Below are positions 15,503 through 27,859 of a stretch of 64,000 bases of DNA, one piece after another. Source of the DNA: a phage; assembly GCA_033286805.1 (NCBI GenBank), contig GCA_033286805.1_4727.1; one strand, given 5' to 3'. Under the pieces are notes generated by a model, which saw only the letters and a program-made list of their open reading frames with translations, was not told where the DNA came from and ran no database searches. Every line of letters begins with the position of its first letter. Position 1 is the first letter of the stretch. A program made the translations under genes and the position numbers.

Positions 15503-15602
15503 GCTGACTTATGTATCACGGTGCCGGATGAATGTCCGGTGCAATGAAACCATCCGCAACGTTGTCGTCAAGAATATCATCCAACGAAGCAGCTACGGTA
15601 GT

Positions 15603-17825
15603 TCAGTTAGTCTGAACCGGCAGCTTGATGTTTTCAGTGTAGACCTTACGCAGGTTCACAACGTTAATCAGACCCAGCAGCGGGCAGTTGTTAACGAAGC
15701 GGCAGCGCGGCTGAACCATGGTTTCTTTAGAAACCTGACCGTTACGGGTAACCTGAGCAACAGATACCAGTTCCGGTACATACAGGAACATACCGAAGGT
15801 CAGCGGATCCGGAGAACCCTGGATACCACGAGACAGGGTCACGAAGATCTTATCGCGCAGCATGACGTTCGGGTTATCTACAACCACGAAGTTGAAGCTT
15901 ACACCAACGGTACGGAAATCGCCATCGGTCTGCAGGAACTGCGGGATGTAGTTGTCAGTTGCTACTACGCAACGCGGTTTCTCATCAGCGTTGGAAGACA
16001 GCAGCTGCAGAGCTGGCTGATAACCAGACTCAGAGTACATGCGGTATGCCATTTCACGAATCACGTTCATGATCGCAGCAGACACTTCAGCACGACGTTC
16101 TGCGGTGGTGGTACCCTGAACAGATTTCTCCAGGTCCAGGTTGATTTCTTCGAACCACGGACGGATCAGGTAACGACCGAAACCTTCGATCTGGATGTCA
16201 CCGAACTGACGGAAGCGAGAGGTCGCAACCGCTTTCAGTGCGTCTTTGTAGCTGAACAGTTTCTCAACCATCAGGTTGTCGAAACGTGCGTTAGCAGCTT
16301 GGATCAGAACGTCCAGGTCAGCAGCGTTTTCTTCCCAATCCAGCGGACGAGGAATGGAGAACGGAGCCAGCAGGCCGATTGCGTAACGTTCTTGCTTCAT
16401 GTTGAAGTCAAGGTGCTTACCGCGCTCACGACGGTTGCTGTTGTTACGGCGGATACGCAGTTCGTAACCAACCAGTTTGAAGCTCAGGTCTTCAGCCAGT
16501 TGTTTGAACTCTTCGCTCTTACGCGGTTGTTCGATGTTGTCCTGATCAACCAGGCGATACAGTTCAGCGTTAGCGCCGTTAACACGCAGACCCGCTTTCT
16601 CTACGTTGGAAGAACCGTAAACTTCGATCGCCAGCTGAGCAGCAGATTTCGCATCGATGATGTCCTGCAGCGCTTCAGCTTTCGCACCTTTAACGTCTTT
16701 GGTGTTCTCATCAACGAAGATGGAGTGAGTGTCGAACGCCAGGGTCATTTTGCGGAAGTCGCCTTCCAGGGATTTCTGGAAACCGTTGGTGATCAGACCA
16801 GATACGTCGAACGGTACGTAAGAGGTTTTGCTGTGCTTGGTAGATTTGATTTCCACCAGGATTTTGGTCAGCGTGATCTGGGCGTCCAGCGCGTCGGTGT
16901 TGTCGCTGTAACCGTTAGCCAGGATGCTATCGTCTTCAGCGATACCGATCATGTCGATCAGTTTATCAACAGCCAGGTAAGACGTTTTATAAGTTACGCC
17001 TTTAATTTCGATGTCACGCGGAGCAACGATAGTTTTGTCAACGAAGTACTGCGCGTTAGCATCGTCAGCACGATAGATCGGATGCAGATCGGTCACGTCG
17101 TTGGACAGAACGTCGTTGTACATGAACGCATCCAGCAGCGGACGACGTACCCAATCAGCCGGAGTACCGTCAGCGTTACGACGCAGGTGGTTGAACACCA
17201 GCGGACGACGGAAAGATACATCATAACCGATCTGGTTCGGAGCCAGAACGATGGTGTTGTACAGTTCGTTACCCATGCGGCTCAGACGAGAAGCCTTCAC
17301 GTTGAACACAACGGAGTACGGCATCATGTCACGCAGTTCTTTCTGGTCGTAGGACAGCTGAACCAGTTCTTCAGATTCGCAACCGCAGGAATCAGCAGCC
17401 ATCATGACGAAGTTAGAGCTATCGACTTCACGGCCAGACGGAGTGGTGCTGATGTTCATGGAACGTGCTTGTTTAGCATATTCCACCGGGTTGCCATGAG
17501 CCAGCATGATCAGTGCTGCTGCACGAGCCTGCTGTGCGTTCATGGTGAACAGCTGTTCTTCAATACGCTGCTTCTCTTCCGGAGTGGTGGTTTCGAAGCC
17601 CAGCATGGACAGAACCGGTTCTTCGGCTTTACGGATGTCGCTGCTGAAGCTCTTAACATCCATTTCGTTAACCAGTTTGTCCATGGATTTGAAATCAACC
17701 TTAGAAGCAGATTCCATAGACAGGAAGGTGTTCTCCAGACCTTTGTCTGCTGGTTTGCTACCATTAGCGGTCAGGAACTGGCGAGTGGCCGCGACCTGTT
17801 GGCTAAGAAGGGTTTTATCATTCAT
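15603..17825 (-). CDS. candidate major capsid protein (740 aa); alternative is tail sheath
   Basis: strongest codon bias in the window (CTG, CGT, GGT, GAA, AAA) indicating very high expression; the 740-aa size is in the range I recall for phiKZ-like major capsid proteins; AAAGGA RBS; hairpin immediately downstream; N-terminal region contains S/A/G-x-E sites compatible with prohead-protease processing. Confidence 0.55.
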   Translation of the reverse strand: MNDKTLLSQQVAATRQFLTANGSKPADKGLENTFLSMESASKVDFKSMDKLVNEMDVKSFSSDIRKAEEPVLSMLGFETTTPEEKQRIEEQLFTMNAQQARAAALIMLAHGNPVEYAKQARSMNISTTPSGREVDSSNFVMMAADSCGCESEELVQLSYDQKELRDMMPYSVVFNVKASRLSRMGNELYNTIVLAPNQIGYDVSFRRPLVFNHLRRNADGTPADWVRRPLLDAFMYNDVLSNDVTDLHPIYRADDANAQYFVDKTIVAPRDIEIKGVTYKTSYLAVDKLIDMIGIAEDDSILANGYSDNTDALDAQITLTKILVEIKSTKHSKTSYVPFDVSGLITNGFQKSLEGDFRKMTLAFDTHSIFVDENTKDVKGAKAEALQDIIDAKSAAQLAIEVYGSSNVEKAGLRVNGANAELYRLVDQDNIEQPRKSEEFKQLAEDLSFKLVGYELRIRRNNSNRRERGKHLDFNMKQERYAIGLLAPFSIPRPLDWEENAADLDVLIQAANARFDNLMVEKLFSYKDALKAVATSRFRQFGDIQIEGFGRYLIRPWFEEINLDLEKSVQGTTTAERRAEVSAAIMNVIREMAYRMYSESGYQPALQLLSSNADEKPRCVVATDNYIPQFLQTDGDFRTVGVSFNFVVVDNPNVMLRDKIFVTLSRGIQGSPDPLTFGMFLYVPELVSVAQVTRNGQVSKETMVQPRCRFVNNCPLLGLINVVNLRKVYTENIKLPVQTN

Positions 17826-17974
17826 TGAAAGTATCCTTTACAGAATTAACTTATATAAGTCGGTCGATAGACCATAGCGTACACGCGTGCATGCGCCACT
17901 ATAGTATCAGTAAACACTTACCGTTGTTTAGGCTGTGATACAACACTAAAAATGCCGCATAACTTTTCCCTACG

Positions 17975-18595
17975 TCATAAACGACGCAGGCGATAATGGA
18001 TGGAACGATTGGTGCAATATGAACGGAACAGCGGCAATTGCGCAACTTCCGCAAGACTCATATTAATTCGCAGGTGTTCAATAACGGCGCTGTAGTTATC
18101 AGCAATACGATCGCTCAATAACTCTTCTGCCAATAAAGGAAGACAATCGACAACAATCGCGATCACATCCTCATTAACATAACGCACCCGAACACTCAAC
18201 GGACGTTTGTCTGGGCTGTAAGTTGGATCCGCCAAACGACGTTCAATATCACGCGGATAGCTCGTCAGTAAATGGTAATAACCATTGTCATAACGATTGA
18301 TGTACTCACACAGCACATCAACATTCTTCTCTGGCGGCAAACCTGTTTCGTCATAGTGATACGCAAACATACCACCAAGCAGGTTGTTAAGATGAACTGC
18401 AGGGTTCGCTTGTTCGTGTTCTTTCGTGATGAAGAAAGGCACGTTTTGAGCTGCGAAATAAAAACCTACATCATTGGGCGATAGTATGCCGAAAAGACTT
18501 TTAGGGTCTAATAACACCTGTAAGTCATCACGCGCATTTCGAATAATCGCGTGTTCTACCCAATTCGGAACGACGAGATATCGGAGTTCCTTCAT
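17975..18595 (-). CDS. hypothetical protein (206 aa)
   Basis: ATG at 18595 with AGAGGT RBS; divergent from the helicase-like gene. Confidence 0.6.
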   Translation of the reverse strand: MKELRYLVVPNWVEHAIIRNARDDLQVLLDPKSLFGILSPNDVGFYFAAQNVPFFITKEHEQANPAVHLNNLLGGMFAYHYDETGLPPEKNVDVLCEYINRYDNGYYHLLTSYPRDIERRLADPTYSPDKRPLSVRVRYVNEDVIAIVVDCLPLLAEELLSDRIADNYSAVIEHLRINMSLAEVAQLPLFRSYCTNRSIHYRLRRL

Positions 18596-18634
18596 TATGA
18601 TTACCTCTTTGCAAGTATCGAAAGGATTGAGTCG

Positions 18635-20245
18635 ATGGACCCAAAACAGATAGCCATTAAGATTATTACGTTACTGTTTCGTAATGCACAATTGAACCAT
18701 CCCGATCCCAGTACGATCGAACATGTTAAATCCGTCTTAGATAAAGTCGAACCCCCGAAAAACCATCTCGCTACAGACGTAGATAGAGAGGTTTTCAGCA
18801 ACCTGATGAACACCATTCATTGGATGCTGGAACAACCGTTATCGGAACCTTTCGATAAACAACAGTTGTTACAAAGGATACGTTTAGATTGCCTTGAACA
18901 AAGCAATCTTTACGAGATTCTTGCCGACGGACTGTACGATATCGAAGACGACGCTCATATCAGTAAGGTCTGTTCGCTCTATTACAACGAATTACGTAAT
19001 CTGATTACCCGTCGTCGTGTTTTCGAAACCTTTAGAAACACGTACATGGATATCAGTAACGGGCGACTTGGGGATAAAGAATTTTTCGATGCGATGGCGA
19101 ATCTGAAATTATCGCTAGACAGTATCGAAATGGATACCGAAAATCCCGAAGAGATGGCGTGTATGATTGACGGCTTTATCGCTGACAGCGAAGACGATAT
19201 CGAGAAAGTCGAACGTATGTTCGTCAAAGCGATGGAACGTAACAGTCCTGAAGGTGGATTTGTAACCGGCTGGCAAGGCTTTAATAAAATGTTGGGGTCG
19301 GTCGGTGTTTTACGTCGCGGTACCTTAGGACTGATTGGTGCAATGCAGCACCGGAACAAGTCAGGCGTGTTGTTAAAACTGTTCACACATCTGGCATTGT
19401 ACAACAAACCCCATTTCTTTTTCCCGGAGCGAGCAAAGAAAGCATTACTGATTCATTTGTCGACAGAAAACGAAGTGGAAGAAAACACGCTTCAGATATA
19501 CAAGAACATGCGAGAACAGGAAACAGGCGAATATGTCGATATTCGTAAGATTGACCCTCGCGAGGCATCACGTTATGTGTTGAAGGTGTTCAACGATGCG
19601 GGTTTCTCTGTTTGTATGCGTCGTGTTGATGGGATGAGTTACAAACAACTCGCTAATCTCATCGACCATTTCGAACGCATGGGTTATGAGGTCATGGCGT
19701 TGTTCATCGACTATCTGAAAATGTTCTCATCGGAAGGGCTGGATAGAAATGGACCGACCGGCGCATGGCTCCAAGAACTCTTTAACAAAGTCCGTAACCT
19801 CTGCAGCGTTAAACGTATTTTAGGTATGACCGTACACCAGCTGTCATCCGATGCGAAGATGCGTGCACGTGATGGCAACGATGAAGAGTTCGTTGACCAA
19901 GTCGCAGGTTTAAGTTACTGGGATGGTTGTAAAGGGATTGACCGTGAGATTGACCTCGAAGTGATTGTTGATATCGTTAAGGAACCGGGCAAACGTCAAA
20001 GCTGGCAGGTCTTTGCGTTAGGGAAAGACCGTCAACCGGATAACGGTTCAACGAAACCTGAAGACAAACATTTCGCGATGCCATTCCAAACCATCGGGAT
20101 GCTTCCTGATGATTACGGTAAGAAAGCAGTATATTGCCGCAAGGTTGGCGGACAACCTGTCTCCGAGGGAGGTAAAGGTCCGTGGAACAAGTTCGATGAA
20201 AACGCAGCACCGAGTAATGAATTACAATTTGATTTAGAATTTTAA
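18635..20245 (+). CDS. putative DnaB-like (SF4) replicative helicase with degenerate P-loop
   Basis: ORF track start 18551 is GTG and overlaps the divergent gene; ATG at 18635 has AAGGA RBS; motifs MALFIDYL (Walker B / H2-like), VHQLSSDAKMR (H3-like SQLNR), GAMQHRNKSG in the Walker A position. Confidence 0.45.
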   Translation: MDPKQIAIKIITLLFRNAQLNHPDPSTIEHVKSVLDKVEPPKNHLATDVDREVFSNLMNTIHWMLEQPLSEPFDKQQLLQRIRLDCLEQSNLYEILADGLYDIEDDAHISKVCSLYYNELRNLITRRRVFETFRNTYMDISNGRLGDKEFFDAMANLKLSLDSIEMDTENPEEMACMIDGFIADSEDDIEKVERMFVKAMERNSPEGGFVTGWQGFNKMLGSVGVLRRGTLGLIGAMQHRNKSGVLLKLFTHLALYNKPHFFFPERAKKALLIHLSTENEVEENTLQIYKNMREQETGEYVDIRKIDPREASRYVLKVFNDAGFSVCMRRVDGMSYKQLANLIDHFERMGYEVMALFIDYLKMFSSEGLDRNGPTGAWLQELFNKVRNLCSVKRILGMTVHQLSSDAKMRARDGNDEEFVDQVAGLSYWDGCKGIDREIDLEVIVDIVKEPGKRQSWQVFALGKDRQPDNGSTKPEDKHFAMPFQTIGMLPDDYGKKAVYCRKVGGQPVSEGGKGPWNKFDENAAPSNELQFDLEF

Positions 20246-20270
20246 ACGCAAAAAAAAAGATTGTGCGGTT

Positions 20271-20302
20271 CCCTCCTCCAACCCGTAAGGGAAGGAGGAG
20301 GG
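20271..20302. terminator. bidirectional GC-rich hairpin between convergent genes (CCCTCCTCC / AACCCGTAAGGGAA / GGAGGAGGG)
   Basis: perfect 9-bp stem; A9 run upstream on plus strand (T-run after the hairpin for the minus-strand transcript); GTTATGACC follows on plus strand. Confidence 0.6.
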
Positions 20303-20318
20303 GTTATGACCGCTTTGA

Positions 20319-20645
20319 TTAACTTATTGTCATGAATTCATTAGGTGAAAATTTCCAGCCGTTCTCAGTGAGAAGCGTGTTGAGTTTCGCTGCAACGATA
20401 AGCCACGCATGCATGGCTGTTACATCGTATTGGCGATTCACTCGACGTTGGTTTTCGATATTGATTTGCTCCTGTTCAGTGATGTTTGGATAAAGTGCGA
20501 TAGCGCTAGGTTTACCCAGCGCGCTAGTCATCACCGCCGTACATTCACTGATAATGTTGTTTAAGTGGTAGTTATACACCGTTCCACGCATGACGCGATG
20601 ACGGCATTCGATAATAGCGTCGTAAATGATTTCTCGAGTAATCAT
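20319..20645 (-). CDS. hypothetical protein (108 aa)
   Basis: ORF track; ATG; 6-nt gap from the upstream gene (operon). Confidence 0.5.
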   Translation of the reverse strand: MITREIIYDAIIECRHRVMRGTVYNYHLNNIISECTAVMTSALGKPSAIALYPNITEQEQINIENQRRVNRQYDVTAMHAWLIVAAKLNTLLTENGWKFSPNEFMTIS

Positions 20646-20651
20646 GATAAT

Positions 20652-21053
20652 TTAAAACATACGGTCGTTTTTAGCACGGGCGTTCATTACCAGATCGTAG
20701 ATGCCTGCGGTTCGTAAGCACTCTTCGTAGTAACGATGTGCGCCTTCATCAGCCATCCACGATAACCCACGGCTATCCGCAACAATAACCAGTTTGTTAT
20801 TGTTGAACGCACACACCACACGGTAGGTCGCGTTGTTATTCGGGTCGCGAGTGATAAGTTCGTAGACGCCGTTAACAGGTTTACTGAATTCGCCATTTAA
20901 CGGAACGAGTTCGGTAGTACCTTCAGCAAACGTTACGTTGATCGGTGATGGATCTTTAGCGATAACAGTATATTCCACATTGTGTTCTTTACTGGTCATA
21001 ATACCGAAGTAAGAACTGACAGGGGAACGTGGTACACTAAGAATATTAAACAT
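20652..21053 (-). CDS. hypothetical protein (133 aa)
   Basis: ORF track; AAGAGGA RBS. Confidence 0.55.
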   Translation of the reverse strand: MFNILSVPRSPVSSYFGIMTSKEHNVEYTVIAKDPSPINVTFAEGTTELVPLNGEFSKPVNGVYELITRDPNNNATYRVVCAFNNNKLVIVADSRGLSWMADEGAHRYYEECLRTAGIYDLVMNARAKNDRMF

Positions 21054-21987: not shown

Positions 21988-21993
21988 AATATA

Positions 21994-22626
21994 TCACCAA
22001 TGATCGAAGGAACCAGGAGTGTTACGAACGATCTCAACTTGGAAGGTTATTGGTACTGATGGCAATGAAACATATTCGCGTTGCGATAGCAGGACGTTGT
22101 CTTCTCGCTCATCGATGCGAGTAGAACCCGTCAGAAATTGGAACATAGCGACTTGAAGCTCATCGGTGAAACGGAGGTACTCACCGATGTGTGGTGTTGC
22201 ATCATATCGAATAAGTACGTTGCCAAACCGTCGTGCGATATTTGGAGTATCTGTGAACGAAACAGGGAAATCCAAAGTCATTCCCATCGTTTCACCTGGC
22301 TTCATTTTCCGAATCGACGCAATTGGCGCGTCGAAGATATTCCATTCTTCTTTCATCGTGTCTGGAAACACACCGCGATACAAGATGGTCTTTTGATGAC
22401 GATGAACGGGTTGTAAACGGTCAACCAATATTTTCAAAGGTTTAAGTTCTTCAGCCAATTCATAATCTGCTTGGATGTTCCACTTTGCCGCAAGTTCCAT
22501 TAGGTTGGGATACGCGCTATATTTATTGACGATAGCCCAGTTAACATTACGCAAATCGATAGGAAGGAATTTGATAATTTCCTTGTTGAATATCCATTGG
22601 TTTAATTTCTTAATCTTCGAAAGCAT
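21994..22626 (-). CDS. hypothetical protein (about 210 aa)
   Basis: ORF track 21994..22815 would overlap the upstream gene by 170 nt; internal ATG at 22626 lies 16 nt after the upstream stop; start uncertain. Confidence 0.5.
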   Translation of the reverse strand: MLSKIKKLNQWIFNKEIIKFLPIDLRNVNWAIVNKYSAYPNLMELAAKWNIQADYELAEELKPLKILVDRLQPVHRHQKTILYRGVFPDTMKEEWNIFDAPIASIRKMKPGETMGMTLDFPVSFTDTPNIARRFGNVLIRYDATPHIGEYLRFTDELQVAMFQFLTGSTRIDEREDNVLLSQREYVSLPSVPITFQVEIVRNTPGSFDHW

Positions 22627-22642
22627 GATGTACTCACTACAG

Positions 22643-27483: not shown

Positions 27484-27859
27484 CGATGTCGTCCTCGCTA
27501 ATTTCCTCACCTCCTTGTTGTCGATATCCGGTATAATGAATCAGACTGCTCTGTAGAAGCTCTTTAACGAGCCCTAGACGCGTTTTATCTGTTTCATTGG
27601 ACGTTTCCATTAATGTTTCTATTTCGTTGTTTAAAACAGCGTATAGCGCTTCTAACGGCAATCCTTGGATGATTGGTTTGTTGGTACCTTCCGGTAGTGC
27701 CGCAACAGGAATCTGCACGACGGTTTCATGTGAGGTATGTGGGTTGATACGGCAAATATACATACCGGGTACTGAATGTCGCGGGCACGCCGCTACCAAG
27801 CATGTCTGTTGCTGCGCACCGTTAAGTGCGAGTGAAAGAAATTTTGCTTCACGTGTCAT
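27476..27859 (-). CDS. hypothetical protein (127 aa)
   Basis: ORF track; AGGAA RBS; preceded by hairpin plus TTTATGCTGTC. Confidence 0.5.
   Translation of the reverse strand: MTREAKFLSLALNGAQQQTCLVAACPRHSVPGMYICRINPHTSHETVVQIPVAALPEGTNKPIIQGLPLEALYAVLNNEIETLMETSNETDKTRLGLVKELLQSSLIHYTGYRQQGGEEISEDDIDA

Follow-up and report, generated by a model that had tools for sequence, protein, structure and literature searches.

A divergent DnaB-like helicase with a family-wide variant P-loop in a Goslar-like jumbo phage of Escherichia coli

The helicase gene and its neighbors

The window, the whole 64,000-nucleotide stretch of phage DNA that was analyzed (contig GCA_033286805.1_4727.1), carries on its + strand an open reading frame (ORF) for a divergent DnaB-like helicase whose orthologues are Goslar gp043, phiKZ gp118, and Erwinia phage RAY gp315. 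The coding sequence and the elements that border it are listed below.

18596..18599, + strand: TATG tetranucleotide, 39 nt 5' of the helicase ATG
18622..18626, + strand: Shine-Dalgarno-like AAGGA, 8 nt 5' of the helicase ATG, read from the sequence
18635..20245, + strand: divergent DnaB-like helicase coding sequence, taken from the ORF list, with an ATG start, 536 amino acids, and a stop codon at 20243-20245
20265..20313, no strand assigned: strong GC-rich hairpin between the helicase gene and the convergent - strand gene

A longer helicase ORF beginning at GTG 18551 was rejected; it overlaps the divergent upstream gene, and all homologues begin at the equivalent of MDPK. The RefSeq entry for phiKZ gp118 (NP_803684.2; phiKZ NC_004629 9452-9523, - strand) has a GTG as its first codon. 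Translation from an ATG in the same frame, 23 codons further upstream, yields MSSPKQLLVSCITLLCLENRED..., in agreement with the N-terminal sequence conserved in the family, and the annotated phiKZ protein is therefore probably too short at this end.

As the sequence-only reading had stated, the helicase gene lies on the + strand. It is a lone + strand gene with - strand genes on both flanks, and these - strand neighbors include the genes for the major capsid protein and an RNA polymerase subunit. It is oriented away from the gp042-like gene and the major capsid gene, an arrangement conserved in phiKZ, where gp118 points away from gp119 and gp120. Antisense to the major capsid gene (15603..17825, - strand), a stop-free 766-aa ORF was observed at 15528-17828 on the + strand; it exceeds the real capsid gene in length and would mislead a gene caller that selects the longest ORF.

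The helicase coding sequence was 98.1% identical in nucleotides to gp043 of Escherichia phage vB_EcoM_Goslar. Goslar is a nucleus-forming jumbo phage with a 237-kb genome, and the earlier guess that this DNA came from a jumbo phage was thereby borne out: the source is a Goslar-like E. coli jumbo phage. The helicase itself was identical to Goslar gp043 (YP_009820728.1), named "DnaB-like replicative helicase" in RefSeq, at 534 of 536 amino acids (99.6%). The two proteins are of equal length, their P-loops are entirely identical, and the neighboring genes and their orientation match; they differ by two conservative substitutions, R134K and A175S. Three genes downstream of the helicase, between the gp047-like and gp048-like genes, the window contains ~650 nt that are inserted relative to Goslar (21990-22640). 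Searches of Pfam, PHROG, and PDB sequences gave no hit for the single 210-aa ORF (21994..22626, - strand) in this insertion. To the eye, its YRG...SFT...QREY spacing is reminiscent of the R-S-E ADP-ribosyltransferases.

The helicase gene had also been described as lacking the TATG box, in keeping with a putative earlier expression class. Taken literally, the lack of TATG was wrong, as a TATG is present at 18596-18599, where it adjoins the start codon (18593-18595) of the divergent gp042-like gene. Since 0.17 TATG sites are expected by chance per 90 nt, a site at -39 is uninformative either way. Upstream TATG sites were tabulated for 49 genes of the window. Upstream of the - strand genes at 27859, 36506, 59700, 55682, and 21951, a module recurred in which a GC-rich hairpin (of the gggttgggagaggg or gggaaggg type) has a TATG only a few bases after it; the module resembles a terminator with a late-type promoter immediately behind it. 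The helicase TATG is plain, without the hairpin context seen at several - strand genes. Overall, TATG was nearly twice as frequent on the - strand (213 sites) as on the + strand (120 sites).

Scans of positions 17800-20700 for sigma-70 promoters and intrinsic terminators gave no more hits than were obtained in shuffled sequence, a result that is expected because the phage uses its own RNA polymerases. The helicase is not mentioned in the texts of the phiKZ and 201phi2-1 transcript maps. The hairpin at 20265-20313 had a folding energy of -33.5 kcal/mol (z = -4.6 versus shuffles) and is probably a two-way transcription terminator; it was not called by the simple terminator scan because no T-run directly follows its stem.

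Family membership, domain architecture, and relation to DnaB

The protein matched Pfam PF20307, "Divergent DnaB-like ATPase" (divDNAB), with an E value of 1.8e-120 and 402.3 bits against a cut-off of 26, and helicase residues 151-513 covered model positions 3-355 of 356. PHROG 3213, "DnaB-like replicative helicase," was matched with an E value of 2.1e-122. All 23 aligned homologues also matched PF20307. In addition to scoring above the gathering threshold, the helicase carried the P-loop signature of PF20307 and occupied the position of its members in the core block beside the major capsid protein. When 1.84 billion representatives were searched with a profile, the family numbered 1592 members at E<1e-3, of which 657 passed E<1e-30. 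By tblastn, relatives of the helicase with 20-34% identity were found in 282 phage records, all of them from large phiKZ-like phages of Pseudomonas, Erwinia, Salmonella, Vibrio, Serratia, Aeromonas, Klebsiella, and Ralstonia. The helicase belongs to the chimallivirus core genome (PMC10299810).

PF20307 members, including phiKZ gp118 and RAY gp315, are the "divergent DnaB" proteins of group-1 jumbo phages (Iyer et al. 2021). They share a domain plan with the helicase studied here, and the variant P-loop of both follows the pattern A-[LM]-Q-H-x-X-K-[ST]-G. The invariant Glu, Asp, Gln, and Arg are likewise common to both, as is the location beside the major capsid gene. The Goslar clade departs from the rest of the family in several respects. 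It has Asn at position 241, where PF20307 proteins have mostly Tyr or Phe (18 versus 134 of 171 sequences), and Arg-Asn where the PF20307 consensus is Asn-Phe; in addition, residues 169-185 form an insertion specific to the clade, and the C-terminal tail is longer. The domains of the protein were delimited as follows.

18635..19135, + strand: family-specific all-alpha N-terminal domain, residues 1-167
19190..19243, + strand: predicted linker helix before the ATPase domain, residues 186-203, from the secondary structure of the model
19247..20173, + strand: RecA-fold, DnaB_C-type ATPase/helicase domain, residues ~205-513
20174..20242, + strand: disordered C-terminal tail, residues 514-536, Gly-rich and then acidic/aromatic (WNKFDE...FDLEF)

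The N-terminal domain consists of five short helices (residues 3-99) followed by a long helical hairpin (residues 106-141 and 147-167). The DnaB N-terminal domain (PF00772), a helical head with a primase-binding hairpin, found no match in a Pfam scan of 23 family members, and the profile alignment to E. coli DnaB begins only at DnaB residue 175. At the other end of the protein, residues 518-536 had pLDDT values below 50. The C-terminal tails of the family are disordered and Gly-rich and then acidic/aromatic (e.g., PFWDF and WNKFDE); they are net acidic, and in 70 of 171 sequences the final 15 residues include an aromatic pair. It is plausible that this tail is a docking peptide for a replisome partner.

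A search of PDB sequences with the single protein returned only noise; DnaB was reached only with the family profile. The profile of 23 homologues matched Aquifex and Geobacillus DnaB in the PDB with E values of 1.7e-5 to 9e-5. Aligned with hhalign to E. coli DnaB, it gave an E value of 4.9e-6 over residues 180-467 (DnaB 175-443), and the probability of 86% denotes a modest similarity at the sequence level. The same method gave nothing significant against T4 gp41 alone (E=0.25), despite which the fold match to gp41 was strong. The top 50 Foldseek matches were all DnaB or gp41. The closest structural relatives of the RecA-fold core were DnaB, gp41, and gp4. The SF4, DnaB-type assignment made earlier from motifs was thus correct, being upheld by the PF20307 and PHROG 3213 matches as well as by the DnaB profile and fold matches, and the profile similarity to RecA-fold helicases on which it depended was found for E. 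coli, Aquifex, and Geobacillus DnaB.

Bacterial DnaB (E. coli, Aquifex, and Geobacillus) and T4 gp41 have in common with this protein the RecA-fold C-terminal domain with its H1a, H2, H3, and H4 motifs and Lys-x-Arg finger region, the preceding linker helix, and a similar overall size. T7 gp4 and mitochondrial Twinkle are SF4 helicases fused to a primase domain; unlike these, the helicase studied here has no primase or Toprim domain, and its N-terminal region is purely helical.

The variant Walker A motif and conservation of the catalytic residues

The three motifs quoted in the sequence-only reading, GAMQHRNKSG, MALFIDYL, and VHQLSSDAKMR, are all present exactly in the translation. Conservation was assessed in an alignment of the query and 170 family proteins, comprising 23 word-search hits and the best 150 representatives, with a mean pairwise identity of 33%. 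The motifs are given below with their conservation among the 171 sequences and their DnaB counterparts; two independent profile alignments agreed on this pairing.

19337..19366, + strand: variant Walker A (H1), GAMQHRNKSG, residues 235-244, translation exact; family vigALQHnfKsGf (here IGAMQHRNKSGV), DnaB IVAARPSMGKTTF
19466..19468, + strand: Glu278 (171/171), aligned with the catalytic Glu of DnaB H1a; family iSxEN (here STENE), DnaB FSLEM
19694..19717, + strand: Walker B (H2), MALFIDYL, with Asp359 (171/171) and Tyr360 (170/171); family iDYL, DnaB IDYLQL
19832..19864, + strand: H3, VHQLSSDAKMR, with Gln402 (168/171) aligned with the DnaB Gln; family HQLSS, DnaB SQLNR
19937..19963, + strand: H4-like, IDREIDLEV, with Asp440 (165/171) and Glu442 (145/171); family LDQEVDLEI, DnaB IEQDADLIM
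20024..20032, + strand: Lys464-Asp-Arg466, the Lys-x-Arg finger region, with Lys464 (167/171) and Arg466 (166/171); family GKHR (here GKDR), DnaB GKQRN

The Walker A motif had been called noncanonical, and rightly so. Asn241 falls on the second Walker A glycine when the family profile is aligned to DnaB of E. coli and Aquifex (AMQHRNKS versus ARPSMGKT), and neither GxxxxGK[ST] nor the looser [AG]xxxxGK[ST] was found anywhere in the 536-aa protein. The P-loop retains Lys242 and Ser243, and Gly244 is specific to the family.

This substitution extends throughout the family. Position 241 was Tyr in 71 sequences, Phe in 63, Asn in 18, Trp in 8, His in 4, Gly in 4, Ser in 1, and Cys in 1, such that one of Tyr, Phe, Asn, Trp, or His was found in 164 of the 171. 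As judged from this alignment, the Asn241 of Goslar is a minority form of a family-wide substitution. In the divergent DnaB, Iyer et al. (2021) had earlier noted that the ATP-binding Walker motif is modified and the Mg2+ site intact, and the variant P-loop is a normal, already catalogued signature of the family that is not peculiar to the gene studied here.

Only four columns of the alignment were fully invariant: Lys242, Glu278, Asp359, and the family-specific Asn257. Position 243 was Ser or Thr in 171 of 171. The H1a Glu, H2 Asp, H3 Gln, H4 acidic residues, and Lys-x-Arg all align with DnaB and were 85-100% conserved, and by this correspondence Arg466 is a candidate arginine finger. The invariant Asn257 (19403-19405) lies in an LYNKP motif after the P-loop helix; YNKP was not seen in the DnaB alignments.

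Gly244 was conserved in 91% of the family, and the aligned DnaB sequences have Ala or Thr at this position. The identities of residues 241 and 244 (19355-19366) were coupled. When residue 241 was small (Gly, Ser, or Cys), residue 244 was other than Gly in 5 of 6 sequences; when residue 241 was bulky, this was so in 11 of 165 (Fisher p=2e-5, without correction for phylogeny). Identity among the four sequences with Gly241 was only 28-30%. From this pattern we infer that the bulky side chain at 241 may pack over the first helical turn, with Gly244 making room for it.

Probable activity of the helicase and its meaning

We consider it likely, from the conserved residues and by analogy with known replicative helicases, that this gene encodes an active hexameric replicative helicase of the "divergent DnaB" family in a Goslar-like, nucleus-forming E. 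coli jumbo phage of the phiKZ type (Chimalliviridae). Published work on the orthologues is consistent with such a role. RAY gp315 localizes to the phage nucleus (PMC10299810), and the nuclear proteins listed for phiKZ include gp118 (bioRxiv 2024.03.27.586873). In phiKZ TnSeq data, PHIKZ118 (1476 bp) resembled the capsid gene in having 0 insertions, and an adjacent gene of 369 bp took 17 insertions (PMC12676376 supplement). The divergent DnaB was itself judged to be probably active by Iyer et al. (2021).

It is unlikely that the protein is instead an active DnaB-fold motor whose main job lies elsewhere than in fork unwinding, such as RadA/Sms-like recombination or branch migration, or DNA remodeling in the phage nucleus. 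In the fold comparison, DnaB, gp41, and gp4 scored clearly above RadA (19.9) and Rad51/KaiC (17-19), and the sequence profiles reached DnaB_C and no other RecA-fold family. These phages moreover have separate UvsX/RecA-like recombinases and SF2 helicases (PMC10299810; Iyer et al. 2021), and the helicase phylogeny tracks the polymerase and whole-genome trees, as that of a core replication gene (PMC10299810).

The sequence-only reading had left a choice between a divergent but active ATPase and an inactivated, helicase-like loader. The first of these is favored. Under the second, the altered P-loop would no longer bind or hydrolyze ATP, and the protein would be a catalytically dead, helicase-shaped scaffold that organizes the replisome or loads another motor. 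A Gly before the Walker A Lys is almost universal in P-loop NTPases, and its loss could in principle weaken nucleotide binding; this canonical Gly was absent in 167 of the 171 sequences. The N-terminal domain and the C-terminal tail also resemble partner-binding modules. A literature search found no enzymology or structure for any member of the divergent DnaB family, and we can therefore only infer that the family has ATPase and helicase activity. However, dead NTPase homologues normally lose their catalytic residues. Here, Lys242, Ser/Thr243, Glu278, and Asp359 were invariant and Gln402, Lys464, and Arg466 were conserved in at least 97% of sequences at a mean identity of only 33%. The catalytic pattern that has been kept is not expected of a dead enzyme and fits an NTPase with a remodeled loop that has retained its chemistry. 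The best fold matches were helicases themselves, and known loaders such as DnaC, lambda P, DciA, and gp59 are folded differently; no loader family (DnaC/DnaI AAA+, lambda P, DciA, or T4 gp59) was among the Pfam or PHROG matches. Moreover, the reviewed literature reports no other SF4 helicase in the chimallivirus core genome (Iyer et al. 2021; PMC10299810). With the catalytic residues other than the missing Gly 97-100% conserved in the 171 sequences and the phiKZ orthologue free of transposon insertions, a dead scaffold or loader is very improbable.

That the odd P-loop is an artifact of alignment or annotation, with a normal Walker A elsewhere or in another frame, is suggested only by the general difficulty of aligning proteins at ~15% identity and has next to no chance of being correct, given that [AG]xxxxGK[ST] occurs nowhere in the protein, that Lys242 falls on the DnaB Walker A lysine in two independent profile alignments, that the predicted model has the strand-loop-helix geometry (strand 231-236, a loop, and then a helix starting at Lys242), and that the motif is kept in 171 homologues.

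As an active replicative helicase, the protein would be expected by analogy with DnaB, T4 gp41, and T7 gp4 to form a ring of RecA-fold domains. Nucleotide would bind where subunits meet, with the P-loop residues Lys242 and Ser243 and the Walker B Asp359 holding it in place. Glu278 would activate the water, Gln402 would sense the gamma-phosphate, and Arg466 of the neighboring subunit would complete the site. Within the phage nucleus, the ring would then move along single-stranded DNA and open the fork for the divergent family-B polymerase of the phage. In the P-loop that would serve this cycle, the Gly that precedes the Lys is exchanged throughout the family for Tyr, Phe, Asn, or Trp (Asn in the Goslar clade), and a Gly stands two residues beyond the Lys.

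How such a helicase would be coupled to priming is a separate matter. Phages of this type have neither DnaG-type nor archaeo-eukaryotic primases (Iyer et al. 2021), and with no known primase, canonical helicase-primase coupling cannot be assumed. A bolder proposal, which we regard as speculative and unlikely, is that the exchange of Gly for Tyr, Phe, or Asn together with the compensating Gly makes a structurally distinct but catalytically competent P-loop, and that, with an N-terminal domain that may be unrelated to that of DnaB and in phages lacking any known primase, the helicase is the hub of a noncanonically primed replisome. If this were true, the variant P-loop could change nucleotide preference or make hydrolysis dependent on a partner, and the priming partner could be, for example, the phage RNA polymerase or the divergent polymerase itself.

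Both the family and its P-loop variant were already known (Iyer et al. 2021), and the gene was already annotated in Goslar. At the level of annotation, the gene is confirmed as the replicative helicase of a Goslar-like nucleus-forming phage, a result of modest wider importance. For the family, the conservation pattern suggests that a P-loop motor can lose an "invariant" Gly and yet keep every catalytic residue under strong selection. The N-terminal domain and the acidic-aromatic tail offer handles on the priming and coupling of DNA synthesis in phages without a known primase, and the protein, coming from a phage of E. coli, is an easy entry point for the biochemistry of the family.
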